NCBI GenBank assembly: GCA_021818875.1
Contig: JAKASW010000001.1
Span: forward strand, 1-53,782
Direction of reading: 5' to 3'
DNA: 53,782 bases
Source: Bacteroidota bacterium
GTDB lineage: Bacteria > Bacteroidota > Ignavibacteria > Kryptoniales > JAKASW01
Shown here: positions 33,352 to 53,782 of the stretch, in pieces
Layout of the letters: the number at the start of each line of letters is the position of its first letter
How positions within the stretch are numbered: position 1 is the first letter of the stretch
The notes under the pieces: model-generated
Databases searched by the model: none
Told to the model about the DNA's origin: nothing
Seen by the model: only the letters and a program-made list of their open reading frames with translations
Program-made: the position numbers and the translations under genes

Positions 33352-33595
33352 ATCTTGAGTAACGGAGCGAGGTCATGGCTGCGCGCCGAAACTCACGTTG
33401 ATGAATTCCCGGCGTGAAGGCACTTGAACCTCGCCTGTTGTACCATCAAAGGAGGTGGTTGAGTTCATTATATGTAAGTCCGCTCAGGGTTCTGCTTTGT
33501 AGTTAAAACCTATGAAATAGTTAACGGAGTTTTTTCCTGGTTCATTCCAGTCTATACAGTAATTGCTCCGATTAACAAAAATCTTTGGAGGAATC

Positions 33596-37414: not shown

Positions 37415-38974
37415 ATGAGAATTAAAATAATCCATACTCTGCTTCTACTGAGCTTTTGTCTCTGCAGTGTTTCACTAGCACAAAACTTTCCCCTTGTCTA
37501 TGATGTCGAAAACACAGGCGAAAACTGTCTGCAACCTCAGTTTCCTTCTCTCACCCAATTGCCGGTCAACAAGTCATTGCCCGATCCGTTCATGTGGGCT
37601 GACAGTGCGCTCGGACGTATCAAATATTACTCGGATTGGCAGGCACGGCGCGCCGAGATAGGTTATCAGATCCAACATTATGAGATCGGAGTAAAGCCAC
37701 CTCGGCCGGATACGATTTCTGCCAGCTATTCTCAAGACACACTGGTTGTCAATGTTACTGTGAATGGTAGCACTCTTACCATGAGGTCGCATATTACTCT
37801 ACCGTCAGGCACCGGCCCATTCCCGGCAGTGATCGGTATTATGACGCCTACCGGAAGTATCCCCGATAGCATTTTCAGCAATCGCCATATTGCAGAAATT
37901 ACGTATAACATCAATCAGGTAACCACTTACTACAACTTCCAATATACTGATCCATATTTCAGGCTTTACCCTAATCTTAATACAACCAACATCGGACAGT
38001 ACAGCGCATGGGCATGGGGAGTAAGCAGAATAATCGACGGGTTGGAACTGGTACAGGACTCGCTTCCCATCGACTTAAAGCACATAGCAGTTACCGGATG
38101 CTCCTACGCAGGCAAGTTGGCACTATTTGCTGGAGCGTTTGACGAACGCATTGCGCTAACAATTGCCCAGGAGTCGGGCGGCGGCGGTGCAACTTCGTGG
38201 CGTTACTCACATGCCACGGCCGGTACCGGCGTAGAGGAGATAGACAACACGAGTTATGATTGGTTTGCAGATTCGTTGAAGCAATTTGCCGGAGACGAAG
38301 TTTATCGACTGCCGTATGATCACCATGAATTGATGGCGATGGTGGCGCCGCGTGCTTTGTATGTCACCGCGAATCCCGATTATACTTGGCTGTCGAATCC
38401 CTCGTGTCACGTTGCGAGTATCGCTGCCCAGAGAGTTTATGAAGGTCTCCAGATACCGGATAGGTTCGGCTATTCAATTGTTGGTGGACATTCGCATTGT
38501 CAGCTTCCGGATGTCCAGGTGCCTGATATCCAGGCATTTGTTGAGAAGTTTCTTCTCGGTGACTCGACCCAATATACGTATCTTGGAACCAGTCCGTATA
38601 ATATCGACCTTACTCCATGGATTGTGTTGAAGAATCCTAAGCTTGCGGATACGACCACCACGTCCATAGGTGACAGACCCGGAAGTGTGATCAGCGGATT
38701 TAGACTTGAACAAAACTGTCCCAACCCCTTTAATCCGACGACGACGATCAGGTATGGTCTGTCCAAAAAATCCTACGTCCAGCTTTTCATCTACGATGTT
38801 CTTGGACGGCAGGTAGCGAAGCTGGTTGATGGTATTCAACACCCCAGCGAGCAGAGCGTTTCATGGGACGCGTCAGGCTTTAGCAGCGGTGTTTACTTCT
38901 GCCGGATTATTGCTCGCAGTCTCGATGGGTCGACAGATTTCAATGCTGTAAAAAAACTCCTGTACATGAAATAG
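37415..38974 (+). CDS. CE15 glucuronoyl esterase (second copy) with T9SS CTD
   Basis: It is collinear with 237..2372: LVYDVENTGEN, LPVNKSLPDPFMWAD, VTGCSYAGKLALFAGAFDERIALTIAQESGGGG and GGHSHCQLPD. It lacks Fn3 modules. The CTD is QNCPNPFNPTTTI...VYFCRIIARSLDGSTDFNAVKKLLYMK. Confidence 0.88.
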   Translation: MRIKIIHTLLLLSFCLCSVSLAQNFPLVYDVENTGENCLQPQFPSLTQLPVNKSLPDPFMWADSALGRIKYYSDWQARRAEIGYQIQHYEIGVKPPRPDTISASYSQDTLVVNVTVNGSTLTMRSHITLPSGTGPFPAVIGIMTPTGSIPDSIFSNRHIAEITYNINQVTTYYNFQYTDPYFRLYPNLNTTNIGQYSAWAWGVSRIIDGLELVQDSLPIDLKHIAVTGCSYAGKLALFAGAFDERIALTIAQESGGGGATSWRYSHATAGTGVEEIDNTSYDWFADSLKQFAGDEVYRLPYDHHELMAMVAPRALYVTANPDYTWLSNPSCHVASIAAQRVYEGLQIPDRFGYSIVGGHSHCQLPDVQVPDIQAFVEKFLLGDSTQYTYLGTSPYNIDLTPWIVLKNPKLADTTTTSIGDRPGSVISGFRLEQNCPNPFNPTTTIRYGLSKKSYVQLFIYDVLGRQVAKLVDGIQHPSEQSVSWDASGFSSGVYFCRIIARSLDGSTDFNAVKKLLYMK

Positions 38975-40878: not shown

Positions 40879-41004
40879 TCAAAGCCAAGTTGAACATCGT
40901 TGTCAGGGGAAGGTAAGAGGTTGGAGGGTTTCTTCAGAGCTATGAGGAGAATGTTGTTGTTGAAGAGGCCACAAGCTGAAGTCATATACATCACGAGGAA
41001 TCAT

Positions 41005-42222
41005 ATGAAATACTTTTCAATGGTGCTGAGCCTTGTGATAGCGATATCTGGTTGCTCCAGAAAAAGTATTGTTACGGCTCCGCCCGATACGAATGGTTCG
41101 ACGACGATCTATCTGGATAACACCCAACAAATCATCAGAGGCTTTGGCGCTGCCAACATTGTCGGCTGGCGGCCGGATATGACACCCTCAGAAATACAGA
41201 CGGCCTTTGGAACTGGTCCGGGCGAGCTCGGCTTTTCGATAATGCGCCTTCGAATTCCACCCGACTCGACTCAGTTCGCTATCAACTTCCCCTCTGCAAA
41301 AGCGGCCTCCGCGATGGGAGTGACCATCATCGCAACTCCGTGGACGCCTCCCCGTTGGATGAAAAGCAACAAGAGTAATATTGGAGGAATACTTAACGCA
41401 TCTTCCTACGCCGCGTACGCCGGCTTTCTGAAATCGTTTGCCGACACAATGTTCAACAACGGAGCGCCTTTGTATGCCATTTCTGTTCAGAACGAACCTG
41501 ATGCCAACGTAACTTACGAGTCATGTTCCTGGTCGCCCGCGGGTTTTTTCAACTTTATGAAGAATAACGCTCCTTCTGTCGGCGTCCCTGTCTTTTTGCC
41601 GGAGTCTATGAGATTCGATCACGCATATTCAGACTCCGCTCTGAGCGATCCAGCCGTTGCCGCAAACGTAGCGTTTATCGGCGGCCATATCTACGGCACC
41701 AGTCCCTCCCTATATCCGCGCGCCATTGCCATGGGTAAGGAGGTGTGGATGACGGAGTACCTTGACCTGGATACGAGCTGGGCCGCTGTCGTGGGGACAG
41801 CTAAGAGCACCAACGATTGTATGAACGTCCAGATGAGCGCATACCTATGGTGGTACATCGTCCGCTATTATGGTCCAATTGGCGAGGACGGCGTCGTCAC
41901 GAAAAGAGGCTATGTCATGTCTCAGTTTGCCAGGTTCATTCGCCCCGGGTTCCATCGCGTCTCCACTTCGGCACAATCTCAAGCGAACATTTGCGTGACT
42001 GCTTACAAAAACGGATCGAAAGTGGTCATTGTTGCGCTGAATACCGGCTCATCGTCGGTTAATCAGAGATTTGTCATCCCGAATTCAGCAGTCGTTTCGT
42101 TCACAGATTACGTCACATCGGTTGATAAGAACTGTACACAAGGAACGACTGTCCAGGTTAACGGCGGAATCTTCATTGCGACTTTGGCCCCATCGAGCGT
42201 GACTACATTTGTCTCAAATTAG
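41005..42222 (+). CDS. GH30 subfamily-8-like glucuronoxylanase, lipoprotein (second copy)
   Basis: From ORF 40900. The likely start is ATG 41005, which gives the lipobox MKYFSMVLSLVIAISGCS. GH30 motifs: IRGFGAAN, ATPWTPPRWMK, SVQNEPD and WMTEY. WWYIVRYYGPIGEDGVVTKRGY closely resembles the uronate-recognising WWYIRRSYGP loop of XynC-type enzymes. Confidence 0.85.
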   Translation: MKYFSMVLSLVIAISGCSRKSIVTAPPDTNGSTTIYLDNTQQIIRGFGAANIVGWRPDMTPSEIQTAFGTGPGELGFSIMRLRIPPDSTQFAINFPSAKAASAMGVTIIATPWTPPRWMKSNKSNIGGILNASSYAAYAGFLKSFADTMFNNGAPLYAISVQNEPDANVTYESCSWSPAGFFNFMKNNAPSVGVPVFLPESMRFDHAYSDSALSDPAVAANVAFIGGHIYGTSPSLYPRAIAMGKEVWMTEYLDLDTSWAAVVGTAKSTNDCMNVQMSAYLWWYIVRYYGPIGEDGVVTKRGYVMSQFARFIRPGFHRVSTSAQSQANICVTAYKNGSKVVIVALNTGSSSVNQRFVIPNSAVVSFTDYVTSVDKNCTQGTTVQVNGGIFIATLAPSSVTTFVSN

Positions 42223-42267: not shown

Positions 42268-44139
42268 ATGAAAAATCCTTTTCGGTTTTCTGTAGTGATG
42301 GCTGTCTTCTATATTTTCCTCGGCTTCAAAACGGCCCCTGCCCAGCCTTCGGGCGGCCCATACGGTCCAGTCAGACAAACTTACCAATTGCCCAAAGTCG
42401 CCGGCTCGATATATTACGTCGCTGTCGATGGTGACTCAACACAATCGGGTGAATCATTTAGTAGACCCACAACTATAGAAGCCGCAGTGGAAAGAGTGAA
42501 GACAGGCGATGCCATCGTAATGCGCGGCGGGACGTACCGAACCGGAAATCTTGTGTTGAATCAAGGGATTACAATTCAGCCGTATGGTGATGAGCATCCC
42601 GTACTCAAGGGGACTCTTGTCGTATCGATTTGGCGGAACCTTGGAAACGGACTGTGGGTCACAAAGTGGAACCACCTTTTCCCGCAAGAGCCCGCGGACT
42701 GGTGGCAGCGCGATGTGTTTGGAAAGCAAACACCGCTATGCCGTTTCAACAATGATATGGTATTTGTTGACGGTAAGTTTCTTCAGTCGGTGATGTGGGA
42801 AGGCGAGGTTGACAGCAGCTCGTATTACATCGATTACGATGACAGCCTTATCTACATCGGTAGCGACCCGACAAATCATCTGGTTGAAATCACCGCTTTC
42901 GATGCAGCGTTGATCAGGACTACACGCGAGTGCCACGGCAAGAAGTCTGACCACGAAGGATATAGCATCCGCGGCATCACATTCACACAATACGCTTACC
43001 GTGCGCTTGAGGTTGAAGGCACCGAGCCGGAAGGTGTTGCTGACGAATCGAAATTTGGGAAAGATGTCGTAGGTACGACACTGGATAATTGTACAATCTC
43101 GTTTTGCTCGCGCGTCGCCGCATATTTGCGCGGAGACAGTCTCACGATCCGTCACTGCAAAATCAGCGACACGAGCACCGAAGGAATCTACACCATTGCT
43201 TCGAATGACGTATTGCTCGATGGCAATATGTTCATGCGGAACAACATCGAAAACATCGGCGGGTGCTATCCTGCCGCAGTGAAGATATTCAATCAGAGTC
43301 ATAGGGTAATATGCCGTGACAACCTGATAACCGATCTTCCGAATTCGAACGGTGTGTGGTACGATGTTGGCGAGGCGGATGGAGTGTTCGTCAATAACTG
43401 GGTGCAGAACGTGGGTCATGTCGGGAAAACGACTCCGACCGACCAGCTCTGGCCGAGCGATAATGGCTTCTTCTTCGAGATATCAAAGGGAGTCATAGTT
43501 GCAGGAAATGTCTTCGTCAACTGCGACCACGGCATGATGATTCTCAACAGCTCAAATGCACAAATTTATCACAATACTTTTGTGAACAGCATGGCATGTA
43601 TCGGGCGGAATGGACGAACGGCGGCCGGGGATCGGTTCGGTTGGCACTCAACCACCGGACCCGATCTTGAAAAACGCGAGGGTCATGCCTTCGTCGACAA
43701 TCTACTTTTCGGAGCTGCGGACTTTATTAGACCGCTTTTCTTTGTCTGGCAACCCGGTTCGCTGTGTGGGAAGCTGAACGATTCGCAACTGGCTCAGCTC
43801 AATTACAACGTCTACGTCCGGGAGGCAGCAGACTCGCCGTATCCGATGATTCTCTGGAGTCCTGTGAAGAATGAGAAGTGCCAGATTGGCGTTGATTCGC
43901 TGGAGAGTCTGCGAGCGCTCTACCCGGGATTCGAGACCGGCGGTGAATGCTATTCCCACTATGACAAACCCGTCTTCAAGAGTTTGGAGCTGGGTAACTT
44001 TCAACTGCTGCCTGAGTTTGACGGCGCAAGACTCGGGATCACACCTCCAATAGAAATCCGAAGGATCATCGGCCGTCCCGATCCGGAGAAACAATATGTC
44101 GGTGCCTATCCGTCAGTCATGCGACTGCAGAAGCCTTAA
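42268..44139 (+). CDS. Secreted right-handed parallel beta-helix repeat protein, unknown function (candidate novel glycan-active enzyme)
   Basis: Signal peptide MKNPFRFSVVMAVFYIFLGFKTAPAQ. The N-terminal IYYVAVDGDSTQSGESFSRPTTIEAAVERVKTGDAIVMRGGTY is typical of pectate-lyase-fold proteins. PbH1-like turns are present: LDNCTISFCSRVAAY, IRHCKISDTSTEGIY, LDGNMFMRNNI and VAGNVFVNCDHGMMI. It has no CTD and no lipobox. Confidence 0.6.
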   Translation: MKNPFRFSVVMAVFYIFLGFKTAPAQPSGGPYGPVRQTYQLPKVAGSIYYVAVDGDSTQSGESFSRPTTIEAAVERVKTGDAIVMRGGTYRTGNLVLNQGITIQPYGDEHPVLKGTLVVSIWRNLGNGLWVTKWNHLFPQEPADWWQRDVFGKQTPLCRFNNDMVFVDGKFLQSVMWEGEVDSSSYYIDYDDSLIYIGSDPTNHLVEITAFDAALIRTTRECHGKKSDHEGYSIRGITFTQYAYRALEVEGTEPEGVADESKFGKDVVGTTLDNCTISFCSRVAAYLRGDSLTIRHCKISDTSTEGIYTIASNDVLLDGNMFMRNNIENIGGCYPAAVKIFNQSHRVICRDNLITDLPNSNGVWYDVGEADGVFVNNWVQNVGHVGKTTPTDQLWPSDNGFFFEISKGVIVAGNVFVNCDHGMMILNSSNAQIYHNTFVNSMACIGRNGRTAAGDRFGWHSTTGPDLEKREGHAFVDNLLFGAADFIRPLFFVWQPGSLCGKLNDSQLAQLNYNVYVREAADSPYPMILWSPVKNEKCQIGVDSLESLRALYPGFETGGECYSHYDKPVFKSLELGNFQLLPEFDGARLGITPPIEIRRIIGRPDPEKQYVGAYPSVMRLQKP

Positions 44140-44302
44140 CTTCTTTGATCCGCTAAAAGAGACAGGGATTGCAAGACCAGGATAACATTGATTCGGCGGT
44201 GGTCAGGACTTAACTTTGCTTAAGAAAAGGAAAGGGGCCGGGAAGCCGGCTCTCTGAAACCGAAATCTTTCACGTCAAGCACAAAACGTAGAGGCACCCA
44301 CA

Positions 44303-44971
44303 GTGAATGAAATTGTTGAGCAGATTGGAGTATGCATAGAACGTGGTAAAGTGAACCAATCTTCTCCCTATCCGAATGATATGAAAGGTCAGGTCGGAGC
44401 AGATGAGCTTGCGAAAGAGGCTCTTGGCGCAGGGGTCGGTCCCGATGAAATACTGTCGGCCTGCAATGACGGCATGAAGCGTATCGGTGAGAGGTTCAGC
44501 CGCAGCGAGGTGTTTGTCCCGGAGCTTCTGATGGCGGCCAAAGCGATGAACGCTGTCATGGCACACCTCAAGCCCTACTTTCAAACCGGAGCGGTCAAGG
44601 CCAAGGGGAAGTTGGTGATCGGGACTGTTGCCGGGGACCTCCATGACATCGGCAAAAACCTTGTTGCCATGGTTGTCGAAGGCAACGGGTGGGAAGTCGT
44701 TGATCTTGGAGTCGATGTAAAGGCGCAGAAGTTCATCGATGCTATCAACAAGAATCCGGGCTGCGTCGTCGGCTTGAGTGCCCTTCTCACTACGACAATG
44801 GCCAACATGATGAAGATAGTAAAGGACATCAAATCGCAGCTACCCTCGACACGGGTGATTGTCGGAGGCGCTCCGCTGACGCAGAAGGCGGCCGACGAAA
44901 TGGGTGCGGATGGCTACGCGCCGAATCCACAGGGCGCGGTCGCATTTTTGAACTCGGCAGGTCAAGTATGA
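44303..44971 (+). CDS. Corrinoid (cobalamin-binding) protein, MtaC/MtbC/MetH-B12-domain type
   Basis: GTG start. The N-terminal helical cap (B12-binding_2-like) is followed by a Rossmann domain. That domain carries the canonical DxHxxG motif in GTVAGDLHDIGKNLV, then GLSALLTTTM and VIVGGAPL. Confidence 0.9.
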   Translation: MNEIVEQIGVCIERGKVNQSSPYPNDMKGQVGADELAKEALGAGVGPDEILSACNDGMKRIGERFSRSEVFVPELLMAAKAMNAVMAHLKPYFQTGAVKAKGKLVIGTVAGDLHDIGKNLVAMVVEGNGWEVVDLGVDVKAQKFIDAINKNPGCVVGLSALLTTTMANMMKIVKDIKSQLPSTRVIVGGAPLTQKAADEMGADGYAPNPQGAVAFLNSAGQV

Positions 44972-45852
44972 GACTTCTGACTGACGCTTTGAAAGAAGGG
45001 AAAGTGTTGGTTTCCGATGGGGCGTGGGGGACCATGTTGCAAGGGCGGGGTCTTGAGCCGGGAGACTGCCCCGAGCTGTGGAATGTCACTCATCGTGACG
45101 ACGTCTTCGCCATTGCCAGAGCTTATGTCGATGCCGGGGCGGACATGGTACTCACGAACAGCTTCGGGGGATCGCCGATTAAGCTTTCTCACTATAACTT
45201 GCAGGATCGTGCCGCAGAGCTTAACGAAGCCGCAGCCAGAATTTCGCGGGAAGCGGCAGGAGCCGCTCATTTTGTGCTCGGTTCCATTGGCCCCACAGGT
45301 GAAATACTTATGACGGCACAGGTAACACAAGAAAGCGTCTATGATGACTTCAGACTACAGGCGGAGGCCCTGAAGCGCGGCGGAGTAGATGCGATCGTCG
45401 TCGAGACGATGTCTGCGATCGATGAAGCGGTGCTTGCGATTCGCGCTGCTAAGGAGTCGACGGGACTTGAAGTTGTCTGCACATTCACATTTGACAGGTC
45501 GCCCAACGGTGAGTATCGGACTATGATGGGCGTTTCACCTGAAGAGATGGTTCGTGCAGTCAAGGGGGCGGGCGCTTCGATTATCGGCGCAAACTGCGGC
45601 AACGGCTTCGACCAGATGGTAGAAGTCGTCAAAGAAATCCGCCGTGCCGATCCGGCAACTCCGATTTTGGTCCATGCCAATGCCGGGTTGCCTGTTCTGA
45701 AAGATGGCAGGACAATTTATCTCGAAACACCAGCAGACATCATTCCAAAAGTACGTGAGCTTGCGGACTGTGGAGCAAACATTATCGGTGGGTGTTGTGG
45801 AACGACGCCTGAACATATCCGTGTGATCGCAGAGGAATTGAAGAGATATTGA
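44968..45852 (+). CDS. Homocysteine S-methyltransferase-domain protein (MetH Hcy-binding module as a standalone protein)
   Basis: The ATG overlaps the upstream stop (ATGA at 44968..44971). Motifs: VSDGAWGTMLQ, AGADMVLTNSFG and VVETM. The Zn-Cys motifs are IGANCGNG and IIGGCCGTTPEHI. Confidence 0.85.
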   Translation: MRLLTDALKEGKVLVSDGAWGTMLQGRGLEPGDCPELWNVTHRDDVFAIARAYVDAGADMVLTNSFGGSPIKLSHYNLQDRAAELNEAAARISREAAGAAHFVLGSIGPTGEILMTAQVTQESVYDDFRLQAEALKRGGVDAIVVETMSAIDEAVLAIRAAKESTGLEVVCTFTFDRSPNGEYRTMMGVSPEEMVRAVKGAGASIIGANCGNGFDQMVEVVKEIRRADPATPILVHANAGLPVLKDGRTIYLETPADIIPKVRELADCGANIIGGCCGTTPEHIRVIAEELKRY

Positions 45853-46613
45853 ATCTGCTCGAAACTGCGATCGAGGGCAACGTTTTTGAAGTTCACATCA
45901 AGTACGATGACCTTCGAATTTCCCGCCGCGAAGTTGAACTCACTCTCGGTTACATGGATGCCGAGATTCCGCCGCATTTTTCGGGGATGATCGACGATGC
46001 TCTCCTGGAGCTGAAGGGTCGCTGTGAAATAAAGGCAGGGTATAGACTCACCGAAGTTGCTCGCCCCCCCGGTCGTTACGACGGACTCCTTGTCGGCGGA
46101 AATTTTCTCAGGATGGACAAGATAGTCACGAGCCAACTCAAGAAATCTGAGAGAGCAGCGGTATTCGTGTGCACGATCGGTTCATCGATGGAAACCTGGG
46201 CCAGAGGATTGATGAAAGATGGTGATCCTGCGATGGGGTACATTGCAGACACGACTGCTTCCGTTGCAGCCGAGGCGGTGACGAATCTTTTACACGATCA
46301 TATCGGGGAGCGGATGTTGTCTCAAGGAATGAGGATTACAAACAGGTACAGTCCGGGCTACTGTAACTGGTCCGTGTCGGAGCAGCATCTTCTTTTCTCT
46401 CTACTGCCGAAAGATTTCTGCGGGGTGACCCTCTCGGAGTCTGCTCTGATGTCGCCGATCAAGTCGGTCAGCGGTGTCATCGGAGTCGGCACTCTTGTCC
46501 GGAGAAAGGATTACATTTGCGATAGGTGCGGCGTCAAAGATTGCACATACAGATCAAAAAGACCAGCGGCAACAAATCAAAAGACGAGCCACATAGAAAC
46601 ATCGGGCACATAG
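45849..46613 (+). CDS. Methionine-synthase (MetH) activation/reactivation-domain-like protein
   Basis: The TTG start overlaps the upstream stop (TTGA at 45849..45852). RYSPGYCNWSVSEQHLLFSLL...LSESALMSPIKSVSGVIGVG parallels the MetH AdoMet-binding domain consensus (PGY...W...Q..LF.LL ... M.P..SVSG). Confidence 0.7.
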   Translation: MNLLETAIEGNVFEVHIKYDDLRISRREVELTLGYMDAEIPPHFSGMIDDALLELKGRCEIKAGYRLTEVARPPGRYDGLLVGGNFLRMDKIVTSQLKKSERAAVFVCTIGSSMETWARGLMKDGDPAMGYIADTTASVAAEAVTNLLHDHIGERMLSQGMRITNRYSPGYCNWSVSEQHLLFSLLPKDFCGVTLSESALMSPIKSVSGVIGVGTLVRRKDYICDRCGVKDCTYRSKRPAATNQKTSHIETSGT

Positions 46614-46666
46614 TCAACTGCCACTGTGTGCCCTGATGCATCTATTTGGTTGAAAGGCCTTGCAGC

Positions 46667-47695
46667 ATGACAGACCATCAATGGGATTTATTGAAAAAGA
46701 CAATCAAGGGTGAAGTCTCCGATCCTCTTCCAATTGCTTTCATTATCGACAGTCCGTGGCTGCCGAACTGGTATGGCGTCAAGATCCTGGACTATTTCTC
46801 CAGCGATGAGTTATGGCTGAAAGCTAATCTGAAGGCGATCACAGATTTTCCGGATGTCATGTTCCTGCCGGGATTCTGGTCGGAGTTTGGAATGTGCACT
46901 GAGCCTTCGGCATTTGGAGCCCGCGGTACGTTCCCACCCAACGAGTTTCCGTTCGCTCACAAAGTGATTCGCTCGGCAGATGATGTTGACGAGTTACCGA
47001 CGCCCGATCCGAGGATTGATGGTCTGCTGCCGTTTATGTTAAACCGGCTGAAGCTTGCTCAGCCGAAAATCGAGGCGGCAGGCCATAAGATTCGATTCGC
47101 TGTTGCGCGCGGGCCGCTCAATATTGCCAGCTACCTGATGGGCTCGACGGAATTCCTGACAATGATGATGATGCAGCCGGACAAAGCCGAATTGCTGATC
47201 AGGAAAATTACCGATTACCTAAAAGAGTGGCTCCATCTCCAGATGGAGACTTTTCCTACGATCGATGGTATCTTTCTTCTCGACGATATAATCGGCTTCA
47301 TGGGTGCCGAGCAATTTCGTCAATTCGGTCTCCCGTATTTTAAGGAGCTGTTCGACGCGAACGTTTCGGTGAGGTTTCTTCATAATGATGCACCTTGTCG
47401 CGAATCTGCCCCTTTCCTTCCTGAGATGGGAGTCAACCTGTTCAACATGGGCTTTGAGGTGTCATTGAATGAGTTGAGGCAGTTGACGCGAAACAAAGTC
47501 GCACTGGTGGGAAATCTTCCGCCACGTGATGTGCTTGCGAGCGGAACTCCGGAAGTCGTTGCCGCAAAGACACGCGAACTTGTCGGATCTCTTAAAGATA
47601 AGTCCATGGTGATAATGTCATGCGGTGGAGGTATGCCGCCGGGAGTAAGCACCGAGAACATAAAATCATTCTTGGAAGCCGTCAGGAAACATTGA
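46667..47695 (+). CDS. URO-D (uroporphyrinogen decarboxylase) superfamily methyltransferase, MtaA/CmuA/O-demethylase-MT-like, copy 1
   Basis: From ORF 46646 (TTG); the first ATG is at 46667. The length is about 340 aa and the layout is URO-D-like (P..W..RQAGR-type N-terminus replaced by PIAFIIDSPWLPNWYG; GIFLLDD; MSCGGGMPPG). It lacks the H-x-C zinc motif (LHNDAPC instead). Assignment rests on fold-level resemblance and context. Confidence 0.6.
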   Translation: MTDHQWDLLKKTIKGEVSDPLPIAFIIDSPWLPNWYGVKILDYFSSDELWLKANLKAITDFPDVMFLPGFWSEFGMCTEPSAFGARGTFPPNEFPFAHKVIRSADDVDELPTPDPRIDGLLPFMLNRLKLAQPKIEAAGHKIRFAVARGPLNIASYLMGSTEFLTMMMMQPDKAELLIRKITDYLKEWLHLQMETFPTIDGIFLLDDIIGFMGAEQFRQFGLPYFKELFDANVSVRFLHNDAPCRESAPFLPEMGVNLFNMGFEVSLNELRQLTRNKVALVGNLPPRDVLASGTPEVVAAKTRELVGSLKDKSMVIMSCGGGMPPGVSTENIKSFLEAVRKH

Positions 47696-47734
47696 TCTCT
47701 AAAGTGAAAATTATATGGGAACATTCGGTTCTCC

Positions 47735-48754
47735 GTGACAAAGCCATTTCTTGACGCGGTTCGCGGATCTTACGCGCAGCGTCGCCGCCTGGTGGCTCCG
47801 CTGATGGGTTTCCCGGGTGTTAAGCTTGCAGGCACCACTGTAAAACTTGCCCAGCAGAACTATGCCGAGCATTTCAGAGTACTTAAAGCATTGGTCGAAA
47901 CGTTTAACCCGGATGTGATTTTTCCCCTGATGGACTTGTCGGTGGAAGCGAATGCACTTGGCCGCTACACAATTTTTCCGAAGGAAGATTCGGCTACGGT
48001 TGTGAAAGGGGAATTCACTCGTGAGGATCTTGAAATGGCCGGGAAGATCGATATTTGCTCCGACGCGCGGCTGCTTGGATACGTCGAGACGATGAGATTA
48101 ATGACATCGCATCTGCCTGGCGGGATTATTAGAGGTGCTTACGTTACGGGACCATACACGCTTGCTGCACTTCTGATGGGGGCGGACGAAGCGGCGATTG
48201 CGACCGTGATGAACTGCGAGATGCTCCATGAAATATGCGACATGACTGTCGCGAAAATTGCTCAATACGTTCAACTGCTGGTGAAAGCCGGTGCGCAGCT
48301 GATATGCGTTCTCGAACCGAGCGCAGTTATGCTTGGGCCAGCCCAGTTTGAAGAATATTCGGGTTCGTATGTCCGAAAGATATCCTCGGAATATTCACGT
48401 TCGGACATTGCGTTCGTTTATCATGTCTGCGGAAATTCAATGCATCTTATTGAGGTCATGGCAAGCTCAGCCGTCGATGCGATTAGTCTCGACTCTACTG
48501 AAGCGGGTGTTGATTTGCTGCGGGCAGCGACAAAAGTGCAAAACGAAATCGTATTTATTGGCAACCTGAGTCCGACCGGATCAATCTTAGGCGGACATCC
48601 TGGAGAAGTCGAAAGAGAAACATCTGCGCTTCTTGACGAAATGGAAAGCTGTCCAAACTTTGTCCTGAGCACCGGCTGCGATCTGCCTCAGGAGACACCG
48701 CACGAGAACATCGAAGCTTTCATGAACGCAGGGCGCAGCTATATGATTAATTAA
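47735..48754 (+). CDS. URO-D superfamily methylcobamide methyltransferase, MtaA/MtbA-like, copy 2 (retains HxC...C zinc motif)
   Basis: GTG start. VYHVCGNSMHLIEVMASSAVDAISLD matches the MtaA-type 'HxCG ... D..S.D' block. A second Cys lies in LSTGCDLPQETPHENI. It is about 339 aa. Confidence 0.65.
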   Translation: MTKPFLDAVRGSYAQRRRLVAPLMGFPGVKLAGTTVKLAQQNYAEHFRVLKALVETFNPDVIFPLMDLSVEANALGRYTIFPKEDSATVVKGEFTREDLEMAGKIDICSDARLLGYVETMRLMTSHLPGGIIRGAYVTGPYTLAALLMGADEAAIATVMNCEMLHEICDMTVAKIAQYVQLLVKAGAQLICVLEPSAVMLGPAQFEEYSGSYVRKISSEYSRSDIAFVYHVCGNSMHLIEVMASSAVDAISLDSTEAGVDLLRAATKVQNEIVFIGNLSPTGSILGGHPGEVERETSALLDEMESCPNFVLSTGCDLPQETPHENIEAFMNAGRSYMIN

Positions 48755-48784
48755 TTCGGCAAAGAGACTGCCACGCAGGAGGAA

Positions 48785-50092
48785 ATGATGAAGACCGGAA
48801 ATACAAGCTCCGTTAATTTACAGCAGGATTCCGACTTTGAATCGAAAGTCGGCTACTATAGGTGGATCGTCTGCGGCCTCCTGTTTTTTGCCACGACGAT
48901 TAACTATGTGGACAGGGCAGTTCTGGGAATTCTGGCTCCGACTCTTCAGAAGCAGATGGGCTGGAACCAGATCGATTACGGCTACATAGTCACGGCTTTC
49001 ACCGGCGCATACGCCATCGGAATGTTGTTCGTCGGGAGATTTATAGATAAGGTGGGGACCAGAATCGGGTATGCTGTGTCGATGATAGTCTGGAGCATAG
49101 CGGCCATGACACACGCTTTAGCCGCCAACGTATTCGAATTCGGAGCCGCAAGATTCGCATTGGGGCTTGGAGAGTCCGGGAACTTTCCCGCAGCCATAAA
49201 GGGAACTGCAGAATGGTTCCCGAAGAAGGAGAGAGCTTACGCGACCGGGCTCTTTAATTCCGGTGCAAACATAGGCTCAATAGTTGCACCTCTCATCGTG
49301 CCGTGGATAACTCTGACCTGGAGCTGGCGCGAGGCGTTCATATTCACCGGACTGCTCGGTGTCATTTCCCTCGCTTTATGGTTGTGGTTTTTCGAAATCC
49401 CAGAAAGGCAGAAACGTGTGAGCAAAGCCGAGATCGCTTACATCCAGAGCGATCCCCCGGAACCGCCTGCGGAGAAAGTACCATGGCTCAAGCTTCTTAA
49501 GTACAGGCAATCGTGGGCTTTTGTCGAGAGCAAGTTCCTGACAGATCCGATATGGTGGTTCTACCTTTACTGGCTGCCAAATTTCCTGAATTCCCGGTAT
49601 CACCTTAACTTAGCTGAGATTGGTCTTCCTTTGATCGTCATTTACACGATGACGACGGTAGGCAGCATTGGTGGAGGCTGGATGTCCGGAGCACTGATAA
49701 AAAGGGGATGGAGCGTCAACCGTGGAAGAAAGGCGACGATGCTATTGAGTGCGGTGCTTATCGTTCCGATAGTGTTTGCTTCGATAGTGCCCGAGTGGTG
49801 GGCGGTATTCCTGATCGGACTTGCCGCTGCTTCGCACCAGAGCTGGTCGGCGAATTTGTTCACTACGACTTCCGACATGTTTCCGAAGAAAGCTGTTGCG
49901 TCCGTCACCGGCCTCGGCGGAATGGCGGGCGCAATAGGCGGAATGCTTATCGCTACCGCAGCAGGGTTCATACTCCAGTTCACCGGAAGCTACATGGCGC
50001 TATTCATAATTGCGGGTACAGTCTATTTGCTTGCACTGCTGGTGTTCCATCTTCTCGTGCCGGAGATAAAAGAGTTCAAGATGGAAGGATAG
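48785..50092 (+). CDS. MFS transporter, anion:cation symporter (ACS) family, hexuronate transporter ExuT-like
   Basis: AGGAGG RBS. YYRWIVCGLLFFATTINYVDRAVLGILAPTLQKQMGWNQIDYGYIVTAFTGAYAIGMLFVGRFIDKVGTR is very similar in pattern to ExuT/ACS N-termini. The protein has about 12 hydrophobic segments. Confidence 0.75.
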   Translation: MMKTGNTSSVNLQQDSDFESKVGYYRWIVCGLLFFATTINYVDRAVLGILAPTLQKQMGWNQIDYGYIVTAFTGAYAIGMLFVGRFIDKVGTRIGYAVSMIVWSIAAMTHALAANVFEFGAARFALGLGESGNFPAAIKGTAEWFPKKERAYATGLFNSGANIGSIVAPLIVPWITLTWSWREAFIFTGLLGVISLALWLWFFEIPERQKRVSKAEIAYIQSDPPEPPAEKVPWLKLLKYRQSWAFVESKFLTDPIWWFYLYWLPNFLNSRYHLNLAEIGLPLIVIYTMTTVGSIGGGWMSGALIKRGWSVNRGRKATMLLSAVLIVPIVFASIVPEWWAVFLIGLAAASHQSWSANLFTTTSDMFPKKAVASVTGLGGMAGAIGGMLIATAAGFILQFTGSYMALFIIAGTVYLLALLVFHLLVPEIKEFKMEG

Positions 50093-50098
50093 ATGATT

Positions 50099-50132
50099 CT
50101 TGCTTATCCTGAATGCAAGCTTTAACTTTTTC
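50099..50132 (+). terminator. Weak hairpin plus T-tract after the transporter gene
   Basis: CTTGC (50099..50103) pairs with GCAAG (50115..50119), followed by CTTTAACTTTTT. The stem is short, so confidence is low. Confidence 0.3.
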
Positions 50133-50134
50133 CG

Positions 50135-50509
50135 ATGGCAATCGTGGGTGGCAGAAAAGAGAAGCATACAAACGAGAAGATGTTGACTGATCGCGAGTTG
50201 AATCGCACGTTGAAACTCATGGTCAGTCGAATCGTCAGGAAATTCAAGCCGGAGCAGATCATTCTTTTCGGTTCGCGAGCGCGCGGCGATGCCCAACCCG
50301 ACAGCGACTTCGATTTGCTGGTGGTAATGCCGGTCGCAGGATCGAAGCGGGAAAAGAGTGTGGAATTAGGAGTAGCTTTGCACGATATTCGCGTGGCTAA
50401 AGATATAATTGTGGTCACGCCCGAGGAATTTGCGTGGCAACAAAATCAAGTGGGGACTATCGCTTATCCCGCCGTGCGGGAAGGCAGGGTGCTGTATGCT
50501 GGTGACTGA
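50135..50509 (+). CDS. Minimal nucleotidyltransferase (MNT) antitoxin of an MNT/HEPN pair
   Basis: ILFGSRARGDAQPDSDFDLLVV is the GSxxRG...DxD polymerase-beta-type NTase motif. An alternative start is ATG 50180. Confidence 0.85.
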   Translation: MAIVGGRKEKHTNEKMLTDRELNRTLKLMVSRIVRKFKPEQIILFGSRARGDAQPDSDFDLLVVMPVAGSKREKSVELGVALHDIRVAKDIIVVTPEEFAWQQNQVGTIAYPAVREGRVLYAGD

Positions 50510-50921
50510 CGAGGCCCTCTACGTAATTCGGCAGTGGGTTGAGAAAGCAGAGAACGATTATATCACCGCCGTCCACACGTTAAAGCTGGGCAAGAAGTGC
50601 CCGACAGACACTGTGTGCTTTCACACTCAACAGTGCGTCGAAAAATACTTGAAATCACTTTTGATATTCGAGGATGAAGATATTCGCAAGACACATGACA
50701 TTGGACTCTTAATTAGCTTGCTGTCACCGCGACACCGGCCAAAACTGACGGTGGAAGAGCAGAGGCTCTTGACTGGTTTCGCAATCTTCACTCGATACCC
50801 TGGCGATTATGAACCGATATCATTAAAACAAGCCAGGGAAGCTGTTGCCATGGCGAGGCGAGTGCGCAAGCAAGTGCGGGCGTTGTTGCCGCCGGCGAGC
50901 CTGAAGCTGGAGCGGGATTAG
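50496..50921 (+). CDS. HEPN-domain toxin partner of the MNT
   Basis: From ORF 50409. The likely start is ATG 50496, which overlaps the MNT 3' end by 14 nt. AENDYITAVHTLK...QQCVEKYLKSLL...IRKTHDIGLLISLL is typical of HEPN (PF05168-like). Confidence 0.8.
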   Translation: MLVTDEALYVIRQWVEKAENDYITAVHTLKLGKKCPTDTVCFHTQQCVEKYLKSLLIFEDEDIRKTHDIGLLISLLSPRHRPKLTVEEQRLLTGFAIFTRYPGDYEPISLKQAREAVAMARRVRKQVRALLPPASLKLERD

Positions 50922-50986
50922 TTTTCAAAAGTCGCTCAGGTGGCGTGAACAAATACTGAAGCAACCTCGCGAAGCCCTCGCAGCAT

Positions 50987-51229
50987 TTGCGGGGTCAGCT
51001 TCGGAAGGTGTCAAGACGATTTTTCCACGCTCCCGGATCTGTCATTTCCCAGTTGCGGAAGAAACGATACGTTCGACACCCCAAAGCGGTGCCGGTTAAT
51101 TGTGAGTTGAATTCACGATCAGCTTCATGCACCCTGTCTCTCGTTTCTCACGGCAGGAATGACCTCGTCAAGTTCTATCAAGTGGATGACGTAATCGATG
51201 CTTTGCAGGAACTCGGAGAACGACAATGA
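50987..51229 (+). CDS. Possible degenerate HicA-like toxin
   Basis: The stop overlaps the HicB start (ATGA at 51226..51229). The C-terminal SLVSHGRNDLVKFYQVDDVIDALQELG loosely follows the HicA pattern (..P.H...d.l....l..IlkqlGl). The TTG start, poor N-terminus and missing GSH motif leave this weak. Confidence 0.3.
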   Translation: MRGQLRKVSRRFFHAPGSVISQLRKKRYVRHPKAVPVNCELNSRSASCTLSLVSHGRNDLVKFYQVDDVIDALQELGERQ

Positions 51230-51519
51230 AGAAGAACATTTCATACTACCTATCATTAGATTATCCTGTCACCATTGAACGAATGGAGGATGGTGACTAC
51301 TGCGCATCGATTCCTCCGCTAAAAGGGTGCAAAGCTTACTGGAAAACTCAGGCAAAAGCACTCGATGAATTGCATGGGGTAAGGGAAGCGCTGGTCGAAA
51401 TGATGTTCGATCAGCACAAGCCAATACCTGAGCCAACGGTACGTCTCGAAATACCTGCTTCGCAATTTTCCCGCATTCGCAACAAGAAACAGCTCCGCCG
51501 ATTTATTCGAAGCTCGTAA
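51226..51519 (+). CDS. HicB-family antitoxin (UPF0150 fold)
   Basis: YPVTIERMEDGDYCASIPPLKGCKAYWKTQAKALDELHGVREALVEMMFDQHKPIPEP matches the HicB N-terminal domain pattern. Confidence 0.75.
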   Translation: MKKNISYYLSLDYPVTIERMEDGDYCASIPPLKGCKAYWKTQAKALDELHGVREALVEMMFDQHKPIPEPTVRLEIPASQFSRIRNKKQLRRFIRSS

Positions 51520-51610
51520 CGAAGCTTTCAGCTTCGTCTCCATACTTGTAAACCCTATTTTGAATAAGTATTCCAGTGGAAGCGGCAAACATGCCGTCGG
51601 CATAGACTTA

Positions 51611-51899
51611 CCAACATTTGGAATTGACGAACATCCCATCAGCAGCTACAAACAAGCCGTCGGAATTGACAAACATACCATCCGCAGAGACAAATGAGCC
51701 ATCGGCACTGGCAAACATCACATCCGCAACGACAAACGGGCTATCGGAATTGACGAATATCGCATCCGCAGGCGCAAACGAGCCATCGGCGCCAGCAAAC
51801 GTAATATCCGCAGAGACAAACGAGCCTTCGGAATTGGGAAACGTAACATCCGCAATGGCAAACCCGCGATTGGAAGCGCACAATGCTACATCGGAGGCG
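51611..51899. repeat. About 13 tandem 21-bp repeats in two alternating variants (42-bp super-repeat)
   Basis: The units were read directly. Examples: 51648 ACAAACAAGCCGTCGGAATTG, 51669 ACAAACATACCATCCGCAGAG, 51690 ACAAATGAGCCATCGGCACTG, 51711 GCAAACATCACATCCGCAACG, and so on to about 51899, becoming degenerate at both ends. The region is open on both strands. The minus strand (ORF 51608..52096) encodes heptads xxDGxFV. The plus strand (ORF 51618..51965) encodes heptads like NEPSELT. Confidence 0.85.
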
Positions 51900-52130
51900 A
51901 TATACCTACGATCTTCAAGGACGAATGTACCATTCGCATTCTCATTCAAGCCGCTCGATAAATGAGACTTGCGAGCAATATTTACCTGGTCTTGCCTTCT
52001 CGTCGGGTTCCGCCATTTCCCATCACGCCATGATTCCAACTGACTTTGCACGATTTCCCTGTTCTGGGAGCACTCCGTTGATCGAAGGTACCTCACGTAT
52101 TACATTGTGTATTACAAGAAGGAGCAGATT

Positions 52131-52424
52131 ATGTTTTCAATCAGGTTGCCGGACGACTTGGAGAAGAAGCTGGAACGGGTTTCGAAAGAGGAGAAGAAAC
52201 CTAAATCCAGAATTGTCAAAGAGGCTCTTGCTTCATACCTCGAACAGCATTCCAGGAAGCCAACCGCTTATGAACTGGGCAAAGACCTATTTGGGAAATA
52301 TGATCTAGGGATCAAAAATCTAGCGAGGGACCACAAGAAGATATATGCAGAAATGCTGCGTGAAGACCATATTCAAGAGGAAAAGAAACTAAAGAAGTTT
52401 CTACGTGAAAAGCGCTCTCATTGA
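52131..52424 (+). CDS. Ribbon-helix-helix (CopG/VapB-type) antitoxin
   Basis: ATG 52131 lies 7 nt after AAGGAG. MFSIRLPDDLEKKLERVSKEEKKPKSRIVKEALASYLE is a canonical RHH N-terminus. Confidence 0.8.
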   Translation: MFSIRLPDDLEKKLERVSKEEKKPKSRIVKEALASYLEQHSRKPTAYELGKDLFGKYDLGIKNLARDHKKIYAEMLREDHIQEEKKLKKFLREKRSH

Positions 52425-52836
52425 TACAGGCCCACTGGTGGCACTTTTCAACAGCGGCGATGAACGTCATGGTGTGGTCGTATTATTCTTTAAACAAATC
52501 GACGGAAACCTCTTGACCACATGGCCTGTCATCGCGGAAACGGCATATCTACTGCGGTTGAATATTAATGCTCAGATTGACTTCTTTGAGTGGCTAAAGA
52601 GAGAAGCAATTCAGATAATTGAGTTCGAGAAGAAGCATCTTGACAGGGTTATCGAATTGCTGAAGAAATATTCCGATGTGCCGATGGATTTCGCCGACGC
52701 ATCGTTGATGTTGGCTGCAGAGTCGCTGGGCATAAACGATATTGTTTCACTTGACAACGATTTCTATGTCTATAAAACCAAGTCACGAAAGGTTCTTAAC
52801 AACCCGTTGCTGACTTTCATCGAAAGAAAGCACTGA
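52405..52836 (+). CDS. PIN-domain ribonuclease toxin (VapC-like)
   Basis: The GTG start overlaps the antitoxin by 20 nt. The acidic quartet is in the expected context: LIDTGPLVAL, VIAETAYL, MDFADASL and SLDNDF. Confidence 0.8.
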   Translation: MKSALIDTGPLVALFNSGDERHGVVVLFFKQIDGNLLTTWPVIAETAYLLRLNINAQIDFFEWLKREAIQIIEFEKKHLDRVIELLKKYSDVPMDFADASLMLAAESLGINDIVSLDNDFYVYKTKSRKVLNNPLLTFIERKH

Positions 52837-52980
52837 GGCCACTGTTCCAGTATATCGAAACCGCCTTTCACCTCGGTCAACACTTTACTTCTCCTCATCC
52901 ACCAGCACCTCATACTATATCTAAAGCGCGCGACACAACGAGGACAGATTGATGTGTTTGAGTAAAACGAATTTAAAAGT

Positions 52981-53223
52981 ATGTCCAACGAAGAAAAGCA
53001 CGGGATTGACTTGGAAGAGGCGCAAAAGTTATGGAGAAGGATTACTGTAGAGCTCTCATCCAGGTACAAAGAGGATCCGAGAAGACTTGTGATCCTAAGA
53101 TTGAGTGGGAAATTTTGAACTGCGATAGTGACCGAGAGGGGAGATGCACTAAGAATAATATCAGTTCGGAGATCGAGGGATGAAGAGGAAAAAATGTATG
53201 AGACGCTTACAGAAAACCAATAG
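52981..53223 (+). pseudogene. BrnT-like (DUF497) toxin gene interrupted by an in-frame TGA
   Basis: My own translation is MSNEEKHGIDLEEAQKLWRRITVELSSRYKEDPRRLVILRLSGKF*TAIVTERGDALRIISVRRSRDEEEKMYETLTENQ*. The stop is at 53116..53118, in the same frame as the conserved RIISvRr...E...Y tail. The N-terminus is also shorter than is typical for BrnT. Confidence 0.6.
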
Positions 53224-53479
53224 AGAGAATCTTGAAAGTCGGTTTGATTGAGACGAAAGTGTACTCGACTATTTTGACATGGACTCCGCCATGGTACGGG
53301 TGAGCGTGGATTTTCGGGCATGGATGCTGAGAATGTTTGACCAGGAATCTACCAGGCGTGTAGTTAGCAGGCAGGCTTTTGTAAAAATGTGGATCGCAGA
53401 TCGCTTTGAGAAGTCAGGAGTCGGAAATTCTTCCAGGACGCATCGCACAAGAACGATCGGCAAAGCAAGAGAACGCTGA
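53198..53479 (+). pseudogene. BrnA-like antitoxin gene interrupted by an in-frame TGA
   Basis: My own translation is MRRLQKTNRENLESRFD*DESVLDYFDMDSAMVRVSVDFRAWMLRMFDQESTRRVVSRQAFVKMWIADRFEKSG..., with the stop at 53249..53251. The start overlaps the BrnT 3' end, as in intact brnTA operons. vDFp.Wm...lD.Ea.r.gvsRq..iK.Wi..rl is the BrnA pattern. Confidence 0.55.
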
Positions 53480-53518: not shown

Positions 53519-53782
53519 TCATACGACTAGCGATCTCCTTATCCCCATCTCCAATCCCCGCAGCTCAGCCAGACCGCGCATTCTACCGAAGAGCGAATAG
53601 CCCGGGTAAATCCCTTTTCTGTCCATATCAGGGAGCATCAGATGTCCATGGTCCGGCCGCATCGGCATTCGCGCGTTCTCCAAACCTTGCTCTGTTCGCC
53701 GCTTCTGTTCCATGATGAGCGGCTTCATCACTCCGTACATATCCACATCGCCGTCCAGTTGATAACTCTCTACGAACCCGCC
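53519..53782 (-). CDS. uxuA: Mannonate dehydratase, C-terminal fragment (gene continues beyond the window edge)
   Basis: The frame is open to the window edge. ...[49 protein letters not shown] matches the highly conserved UxuA C-terminus (RPDHGHQMLDD....PGYS.IGRLKGLAE.RG.E.AI). Confidence 0.7.

Follow-up and report, generated by a model that had tools for sequence, protein, structure and literature searches.

Results

A packed six-gene block at the end of a xylan locus

We analysed a window of 53,782 nucleotides, that is, the whole stretch from position 1 to 53,782 of contig JAKASW010000001.1 of a Bacteroidota bacterium (assembly GCA_021818875.1), and a block of six genes within it (44303-50092) whose products may remove the methyl ether of 4-O-methyl-glucuronate, a side chain of xylan. 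A first-pass annotation had described these genes as co-directional and tightly packed. The open reading frame (ORF) listing bears this out, with all six genes on the + strand at the coordinates given, 4-nt overlaps at 44968 (ATGA) and 45849 (TTGA), and then gaps of 53, 39 and 30 nt. The 53-nt gap is counted from ATG 46667, the start of the fourth gene in the public gene call; its ORF opens at TTG 46646. A Pfam profile search suggested by the same annotation returned the domain content that it had claimed for all six products, and the motifs GDLHDIGKN, GANCG and GGCCGTTPEHI are readable in the translations and kept in 18-24 orthologues.

The first three genes encode the parts of a corrinoid methyl-transfer chain. 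A corrinoid (B12) carrier protein of 222 aa (CP; 44303..44971, +) contains PF02607 B12-binding_2 (1e-14) and PF02310 B12-binding (7.8e-27), and its base-off/His-on motif GDLHDIGKN (DxHxxG) is conserved in 24 orthologues. Its best NCBIfam matches were MtgC, MtbC and the MetH B12 module, every one of them below cut-off. Next comes HcyMT (44968..45852, +; 294 aa), a Zn homocysteine S-methyltransferase module standing on its own, which matches PF02574 S-methyl_trans over its full length (8.3e-71). The Cys ligands of HcyMT (GANCG and GGCCGTTP) are conserved among orthologues, and the protein is predicted to be a methyl-Co(III):homocysteine methyltransferase (MT2). The third product, a MetH-type reactivation-domain protein of 254 aa (MetHact; 45849..46613, +), matches PF02965 Met_synt_B12 at profile positions 110-247 (6.3e-11). 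We found the S-adenosylmethionine (SAM)-binding RxxxGY motif to be conserved (TNRYSPGYC), and MetHact is predicted to carry out SAM-dependent reductive repair of Co(II)-CP. A C-terminal CxxCx4C motif (Y-x-C-x2-C-G-x3-C-x2-R), shared by MetHact and 17 orthologues, could bind a metal or an Fe-S cluster through which electrons enter during this reactivation.

Two URO-D-fold methyltransferases come next, UroD-A (46667..47695, +; 342 aa; PF01208 5.5e-39) and the MtaA-like UroD-B (47735..48754, +; 339 aa; PF01208 2e-50), the latter with an H-x-C...C zinc motif. The last gene (48785..50092, +) encodes a putative sugar-acid:H+ symporter of 435 aa from the ACS family of the major facilitator superfamily (MFS; MFS_1 2.1e-62). 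The best NCBIfam model for this transporter was TIGR00893, the D-galactonate/ACS subfamily, at 1.1e-75 and 255 bits, below the cut-off of 395. Its best solved structure was Escherichia coli DgoT (6E9N, 1.7e-45 over residues 20-430), with the next family at 1e-14, and models of PcaK and other aromatic-acid transporters gave weak matches in its N-terminal half. The transporter is thus probably of the sugar-acid rather than the aromatic-acid type and is predicted to import uronate.

The whole window gave no match to any Rfam family, and 43900-44500 gave none at permissive thresholds either; no riboswitch of the SAM, B12 or tetrahydrofolate (THF) type is present. Promoter and terminator scanning of 43900-50600 was uninformative, as its counts did not exceed those from shuffled sequence.

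Identity of the two URO-D proteins

As URO-D-fold proteins include the haem-biosynthetic HemE, we asked how UroD-A and UroD-B relate to it. Both fall outside HemE, scoring 65 bits (UroD-A) and 76 bits (UroD-B) on TIGR01464 against a cut-off of 303, and both score better on MtaA/CmuA models than on the HemE model. RQAGR, part of what we take to be the N-terminal substrate-binding signature of HemE (PxWxMRQAGR), is not present in the translation of either protein, and haem-biosynthesis genes were absent from every neighbourhood examined in the window and the related loci. The NCBIfam cut-offs for MtaA, MtbA and MtsA (235-600 bits) were not reached either, the best scores being 120 for UroD-B (PRK06252, cut-off 244) and 76 for UroD-A. 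A housekeeping role for the block, as a methionine synthase or a haem gene, was rejected on the scores on the HemE and MetH models together with the neighbourhood census.

The two proteins differ in conservation and in their metal sites. UroD-B scores 104-120 bits on MtaA/CmuA models versus 76 bits on hemE. Its alignment to MtaA (4AY7) places 'yhvCGN' over 'LHICGN' and 'tGC' over 'pGC', so that the zinc ligands are in place; all of 21 orthologues keep H230, C232 and C315. The top homologues of UroD-B are 57-66% identical to it and spread over many phyla. UroD-A has a variant of the zinc pattern (H-x4-C...SC) and belongs to a tight clade, with its top 120 homologues 75-86% identical and the nearest full-length outgroups, taken from a library of 50%-identity clusters, at 53, 45 and 39%. 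Its AlphaFold2 model (pLDDT 86.6) has the URO-D fold. In a Foldseek search HemE and MtaA matched this model equally well (TM 0.77-0.81), and for this reason the structure does not discriminate between them; no O-demethylase MT1 (substrate:corrinoid methyltransferase) was among its PDB matches. Both URO-D proteins share only about 20% identity with any characterised protein. We read both as substrate-side methyltransferases, and UroD-A is predicted to be the core MT1.

UroD-B is an accessory second methyltransferase or an alternative to UroD-A. It is missing from five sampled operons (L091, L092 and L094-L096; locus labels are introduced below) and broken into pieces of 99 and 104 aa in a sixth (L093, 12209-13004), where UroD-A, CP, HcyMT and MetHact are intact; it therefore seems dispensable where UroD-A exists. 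In other loci UroD-B and CP are present and UroD-A is absent, implying that either URO-D protein can pair with CP.

Gene neighbourhoods of the block

To place the block in context, we took a census of related loci by BLAST with the window proteins and other reference proteins, counting features within 10 kb. Relatives of UroD-B were found in 236 stretches in a scan of 185,579 species genomes, and 80 of these loci were fetched (loci are denoted here by L and a number); the UroD-A census comprised 23 non-redundant loci with a UroD-A orthologue; and ten contexts were sampled directly from UroD-A or HcyMT homologues. The closest related loci carry the labels Candidatus Kryptoniota, Ignavibacteria or 'Bacteroidetes bacterium'.

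The census ties the block to xylanolytic loci and not to methionine or haem operons: xylan-active carbohydrate enzymes (CAZymes) accompany UroD-A in 21 of the 23 loci. HcyMT and MetHact are each present in 19/23, CP in 16/23, an esterase with PF00756 and DUF3471 in 12/23, at least one of uxuA, kdgK and kdgA in 11/23, the transporter gene in 9/23 and a GH115 or GH67 alpha-glucuronidase in 8/23. All ten directly sampled contexts contain xylan CAZymes or hexuronate-catabolism genes, and seven contain an alpha-glucuronidase. HcyMT homologues 66-77% identical to the window protein lie in the same CP-HcyMT-MetHact-URO-D block in four of four sampled contexts. UroD-A, CP, HcyMT and MetHact form the conserved core.

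The order of the parts varies. The commonest arrangement, found in six of the ten direct samples (L091-L096), is a LacI regulator followed by GH115-GH43-(GH10)-CP-HcyMT-MetHact-UroD-A-(AKR)-esterase, where AKR is an aldo-keto reductase. Elsewhere we found GH67...GH43-GH43-PurU-UroD-A...uxuA-LacI (L086), BetaHelix-PurU-UroD-A-AKR-esterase...kdgA-kdgK-uxuA (L089), and PurU-UroD-A-AKR...uxuA...CP-UROD-MetHact-HcyMT, with the second cluster 6 kb on (L087). UroD-B occurs in GH115-PurU-CP-esterase-...-UroD-B (L015, L016 and L021), in PurU-CP-esterase-AKR-...-UroD-B (L023, L029 and L055, with GH115 too in L023) and in GH8-GH115-CE15-GH43-CE4-SASA-UroD-B-GH10 (L005). The PF00756 esterase lies directly 3' of UroD-A, or after the AKR, in L089 and L091-L096. 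Orthologues of the transporter gene come after UroD-B and before a convergent uxuA (for example in L008, L009, L014, L056, L093 and L098). That the same parts recur in shuffled order speaks for a functional link between them, beyond what inherited synteny by itself would give. The GH115 and GH43 enzymes of the relatives have signal peptides, and LacI-type regulators are found at related loci. The AKR after UroD-A (L094, 12829-13698; orthologues in L087, L089 and L091) starts with a twin-arginine-like signal, MRRREFFKYTAATAGALAFSPAAKIFA, and so is probably periplasmic.

A folate branch accompanies the block in some relatives. In two closely related loci (L091, 13389-17302, and L094, 15107-19007), a convergent operon of MTHFR, DUF5981, Pterin_bind (PF00809) and FTHFS genes stands right after CP-HcyMT-MetHact-UroD-A-AKR-esterase, and these genes cover every step between methyl-corrinoid and formate. 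In at least nine other related loci the corresponding position is held by PurU, directly beside CP or UroD-A. The presence of PurU or of PF00809, MTHFR and FTHFS proteins in relatives suggests that homocysteine is not the sole methyl acceptor, and the branch parallels known catabolic demethylation pathways. The adjacency of PurU also led us to consider UroD-A as a methyl-Co:THF transferase (MT2); this is less likely, as L091 and L094 have an extra PF00809 protein.

For UroD-B, xylan CAZymes lie within 10 kb in 29 of the 80 loci and CP in 19, and 28 of the 29 xylan-linked loci come from Kryptoniota, Ignavibacteria, Melioribacteraceae or other metagenome-assembled genomes of the Fibrobacteres-Chlorobi-Bacteroidetes (FCB) group. 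Among 125 neighbouring proteins scanned in non-FCB phyla there was no consistent partner, the most frequent being PfkB kinases (5/125, in five loci). In Anaerophaga thermohalophila (L037, 362-8868) a UroD-B orthologue of 59% identity lies in the order GntR regulator-galK-galT-UroD-B-purL, and a planctomycete UroD-B locus has a solute symporter and a GH38 gene nearby. The position of UroD-B beside galK-galT and sugar kinases ties the family to sugar catabolism, and it may demethylate other methylated sugars, such as methyl-galactose.

Two further arrangements were seen around UroD-B. A Bacteroidales locus (L076) reads CP-UroD-B-URO-D::thioredoxin fusion-HcyMT-CobW. In eight loci (L008, L011, L012, L015, L021, L029, L040 and L055) genes for an IlvD/EDD-family dehydratase, an aldehyde dehydrogenase and a FAH-family protein lie just 3' of UroD-B or the MFS gene, in many cases together with one for a GntP permease. 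The set resembles an aldonate pathway of the Weimberg type, which suggests that oxidised sugars, xylonate for example, are also processed by these xylan loci.

The surrounding xylan and hexuronate genes

In the 44 kb upstream of the block all large ORFs are on the + strand, the majority encode xylan enzymes, and many of the products have type IX secretion (T9SS) tails, which places the organism in the FCB group. The two CE15 glucuronoyl esterases named in the first-pass annotation, one at 96-2372 and a T9SS-tailed one at 37415..38974 (+), are confirmed by PF22244 (1.5e-64 and 1.8e-71). Of the two GH30_8-like glucuronoxylanases that it claimed, both stand as GH30 proteins, and the GH30_8 match applies to the one at 40900..42222 (+), which resembles XynA (PDB 1NOF, 1.1e-97) and XynC (3GTN, 1.8e-83). 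The upstream region further encodes three GH10, two GH43, a GH51, a GH3, a CE2, a CE4, two SASA esterases, a GH27-like protein with NPCBM, a GH35/42-like protein with DUF5597, an MFS_2 transporter and a TonB-dependent receptor. The window contains no AKR, PF00756 esterase or GH88 gene. It has two CE15 genes and a GH30_8-like gene but neither GH67 nor GH115; in most related loci GH115 or GH67 lies beside the corrinoid genes. The SusC-like TonB-dependent receptor (28298-31369) lacks a recognisable SusD partner; it is followed by a T9SS-tailed protein of 623 aa of no recognised family (31480-33351) and by an FG-GAP/ASPIC/fn3 protein of 1242 aa (33563-37291).

Directly 5' of CP lies the gene of a secreted right-handed beta-helix protein, also of 623 aa (42268..44139, +; PF13229 5e-15). 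It has a weak Pel9A-like Pfam match, and its sole structural relative by sequence is the N-terminus of the pectate lyase Pel9A (PDB 1RU4, 1.4e-4). Its orthologues adjoin PurU or CP in L012, L087 and L089 and lie near the block in L056 and L098. In the first three of these loci, which are of Kryptoniota type, the beta-helix gene occupies the slot held by GH115 elsewhere, and no GH115 was found in the fetched regions. The methylglucuronate side chain could thus be the target of the beta-helix protein, as a new kind of alpha-glucuronidase or as a lyase that eliminates methanol; the latter would agree with the GH88 genes of related xylan loci.

The first-pass annotation had also noted a convergent uxuA (mannonate dehydratase) downstream of the block. 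The gene is there but not adjacent, lying 3.4 kb away behind two toxin-antitoxin pairs and a repeat array (50135-53321). The window end cuts this gene, leaving the last 87 codons of its 3' end (53522..53782, -, located by tblastn). In tblastn the fragment shows 100% identity to UxuA (399 aa) from the parent contig, and the full gene matches PF03786. The toxin-antitoxin pairs, both on the + strand between the MFS gene and uxuA, are of the nucleotidyltransferase/HEPN (50135-50921) and RHH/PIN (52107-52836) types. Between them lies a degenerate tandem array (51620-51863) that repeats every 21/42/84 nt (about 5.6 copies for the 42-nt unit; 72-77% matches) and yields mirror-image repetitive ORFs on both strands. 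In four relatives (L014, L056, L093 and L098) the transporter gene is followed directly by a convergent uxuA, with no toxin-antitoxin insertion.

Discussion

A candidate route for demethylation of 4-O-methyl-glucuronate

The acidic side chains of hardwood xylan, and of many other xylans, are mainly 4-O-methyl-glucuronic acid (MeGlcA). As KDPG (2-keto-3-deoxy-6-phosphogluconate) aldolase requires a free 4-OH, the standard hexuronate pathway cannot finish unless the methyl ether is removed first. We know of no enzyme for this demethylation, and a literature full-text search returned neither a 4-O-methyl-glucuronate demethylase nor a report of corrinoid genes in xylan loci. Methanol release from methylglucuronoxylose has reportedly been described for Enterobacter asburiae JDR-1. 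The block described here is the best available candidate for this activity, given how it recurs next to genes for alpha-glucuronidases and glucuronate catabolism in many relatives. The candidacy, already proposed in the first-pass annotation, draws its support from comparative genomics, and checks against HemE, for xylan context and for operon context all came out in its favour. That a corrinoid methyl-transfer system is functionally tied to the use of glucuronoxylan or hexuronates we regard as very likely. For the full explanation, with 4-O-methyl-glucuronate as the substrate, we put the probability at roughly 0.55. There is about an even chance that UroD-A and/or UroD-B, together with CP, constitute the first cobalamin-dependent carbohydrate O-demethylase, converting 4-O-methyl-D-glucuronate to D-glucuronate without oxygen.

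What we observed are the domains, their motifs, the tight packing of the operon and the conservation of its neighbourhood; from these we infer the substrate, the direction of transfer, the URO-D protein acting as MT1 and the fate of most methyl groups, with the roles of the domains taken from knowledge of their families. In the proposed scheme, secreted GH10, GH30_8, GH43 and CE enzymes, including CE15, would degrade xylan, and a periplasmic alpha-glucuronidase (GH115 or GH67 in relatives) would free 4-O-methyl-D-glucuronate, to be brought into the cytoplasm by the DgoT/ExuT-type ACS-family transporter. There a URO-D methyltransferase would bind it and present the methoxy group, whose O-CH3 bond would be polarised by a metal. 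MtaB and MtsA are precedents for this and for zinc-assisted Co(I) demethylation of poor leaving groups. The Co(I) of CP would take the methyl group by SN2 attack, giving D-glucuronate and CH3-Co(III), and HcyMT would pass it to homocysteine to form methionine. In relatives, the methyl group would probably also go to THF via PF00809 and then be oxidised and released as formate by PurU or FTHFS. MetHact would repair Co(II) by SAM-dependent reductive methylation, and it may form a self-contained repair/methionine loop with HcyMT. The D-glucuronate would enter the uxaC-uxuB-uxuA-kdgK-kdgA isomerase route.

Several observations weigh against this proposal. The substrate assignment would be one of guilt by association, and the lineages sampled are related, many loci being from the FCB group, so that the counts overstate independence. 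The window encodes neither a GH67 nor a GH115 alpha-glucuronidase, and uxaC, PurU and PF00809 genes are likewise missing from it. Hardwood xylan carries roughly one MeGlcA per 10 xylose units; homocysteine cannot take this methyl flux stoichiometrically, so bulk turnover needs an unseen acceptor. About 50 of the 80 UroD-B loci, mainly from other phyla, have heterogeneous non-xylan neighbours, indicating that UroD-B is not xylan-specific. The PL9-like beta-helix protein together with GH88 in relatives hints at a separate beta-eliminative route that frees methanol. The His-Cys-Cys zinc site of UroD-B is of the thiol/selenol methyl-transfer type of MtaA and Mlp proteins (PMC10418091), and the most constant neighbour of UroD-A is the PF00756 esterase, possibly a feruloyl esterase, leaving room for an aromatic substrate.

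Alternative substrates and roles

We consider it unlikely that the URO-D proteins act on ferulate or on lignin methoxyphenols freed by CE15 and PF00756 esterases, with the methyl group passing to methionine and one-carbon (C1) metabolism. To our knowledge, all characterised URO-D-fold ether-cleaving MT1 enzymes (OdmB, VdmB, MtvB and MtoB) use aryl methyl ethers (in part from PMC10418091). An aromatic substrate would also suit the release of lignin-linked material by CE15 enzymes and the esterase found in 12/23 UroD-A loci, in several of them directly 3' of UroD-A or after the AKR. By contrast, the transporter is nearest to DgoT and the sugar-acid ACS family, the tightest partners of the block are GH115/GH67, GH43 beta-xylosidase, uxuA, kdgK and kdgA, and in Anaerophaga UroD-B sits beside galK-galT. 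Furthermore, PurU, in the loci that have it, is hydrolytic and brings no gain of ATP, suggesting that the methyl group is discarded to unlock the molecule, which fits a sugar acid and not caffeate in a fermenter; this argument is qualified by L091 and L094, which have FTHFS instead.

Two other explanations, each improbable in our estimate, concern the acceptor and the donor. The block might be a split, folate-independent methionine synthase in which a URO-D protein replaces the folate module of MetH and accepts any methyl donor, demethylation being incidental. Three of the four MetH modules are indeed present as separate proteins with the PF00809 module missing, HcyMT is the only acceptor-side enzyme encoded in the window, and the very high conservation of UroD-A is housekeeping-like. 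Yet most sampled copies lie in catabolic xylan or alpha-glucuronidase loci, several with a LacI-type regulator, no sampled copy is beside met genes, the window has no SAM or B12 riboswitch, and the folate C1-oxidation branch of relatives points to methyl disposal and not to methionine supply only. This explanation overlaps with demethylation of 4-O-methyl-glucuronate, because the donor would still be a methoxy compound derived from xylan. The donor might instead be methanol or a methylated sulfur or selenium compound, with UroD-B, and perhaps UroD-A, acting like MtaA, MtsA or Mlp on methanethiol, dimethyl sulfide, methylselenides, or methanol freed from the uronate by esterases or a beta-eliminating lyase. 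The PL9-like beta-helix protein and GH88 of related loci could mean a beta-eliminative route by which methanol is freed. UroD-B retains the H-x-C...C zinc site of MtaA, it is widespread beyond xylan loci, and MtaA-like proteins in bacterial clusters have been argued to be S/Se-methyltransferases (PMC10418091). However, both an MtaB-type methanol methyltransferase and a RamA/RACE activase are lacking, the xylan loci examined have no sulfur, selenium or methionine-salvage genes, and the linkage of UroD-A to alpha-glucuronidase operons would be left unexplained.

Implications

If 4-O-methyl-glucuronate is the substrate, the block would supply the missing step of methylglucuronoxylan use in many FCB-group and other anaerobic polysaccharide degraders, filling a gap for both anaerobic and facultative ones, and it would be the first non-oxidative sugar demethylase known. 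Xylan degradation in sediments, soils and guts would then be predicted to depend on B12, and hemicellulose turnover would be linked to vitamin B12, methionine and folate C1 metabolism. Plant methoxyl groups would become methionine and formate, with a bearing on C1 fluxes in anoxic habitats, and the enzyme could serve in glucuronate production from xylan side streams. With candidate genes, obvious substrates and a cultured carrier (Rosettibacter primus 4148-Me, locus L063) identified, the question is directly testable.

Comparison with known systems

The CmuA/CmuB chloromethane pathway uses MetF-FolD-PurU, and LigM and DesA are THF-dependent aryl O-demethylases with folate-recycling genes. These systems resemble the PurU-bearing relatives of the block in combining catabolic demethylation with folate-linked methyl oxidation and PurU-type THF recycling. 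They differ in that CmuA, which acts on CH3Cl, combines MT1 and the corrinoid protein in one fused chain, that LigM and DesA work without B12, and that PurU is not in the window. The only sugar demethylase found in our literature search was a cytochrome P450 for 6-O-methyl-galactose, which is O2-dependent, releases formaldehyde and is encoded in a polysaccharide utilisation locus (PMC6292453). It has the same role, the removal of a sugar methyl ether for polysaccharide catabolism, and belongs to an unrelated protein family. Type 1 mlp clusters contain several MtaA-like URO-D proteins and a corrinoid protein, with no THF methyltransferase; a Ram/RACE activase belongs to them, most are from Firmicutes, and their links are to genes for selenium, sulfur and methionine salvage (PMC10418091). 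The present block, in contrast, has HcyMT and MetHact and is found in FCB-group bacteria, in their xylan/hexuronate loci. The lack of a RACE gene and the different context exclude it from the type 1 mlp clusters.

With MetH the block shares the Zn barrel that binds homocysteine (PF02574), the B12 module with its cap and Rossmann parts, and PF02965 with RxxxGY. Unlike in MetH, these are separate polypeptides in catabolic operons, two URO-D-fold proteins take the place of the absent PF00809 module, and MetHact has the extra CxxCx4C tail. On the metH equivalog model, whose cut-off is 1011 bits, the scores are 19-174 bits, and the four modules of MetH are not all present. Split into individual proteins and lacking the folate module, the block is not MetH.

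The anaerobic corrinoid O-demethylases (Odm and Vdm of Acetobacterium dehalogenans, MtvABC of Moorella, those of Desulfitobacterium and the archaeal MtoABCD) have a common plan, in which a URO-D-fold MT1 and a small DxHxxG corrinoid protein are joined by a second methyltransferase and a reactivation factor. They cleave the ether by Co(I) attack, as proposed here, and the first two of these components, URO-D-fold protein and DxHxxG CP, are encoded together in the block. The known systems act on aryl methyl ethers through a PF00809/MtrH-type MT2 and an ATP-dependent RACE/RamA activase, whereas the block has a MetH-type homocysteine module and a SAM-dependent activation domain and comes with carbohydrate loci and a putative sugar-acid transporter. 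PF00809 is absent from the window and lies beside the block only in L091 and L094, PF02574 holding the MT2 position; a RACE/RamA-type activase is absent from the window and the sampled loci, which have the PF02965 MetH-type protein instead. By analogy, then, the block would work like the anaerobic corrinoid O-demethylases, but with modules of MetH replacing the PF00809 MT2 and the RACE activase.

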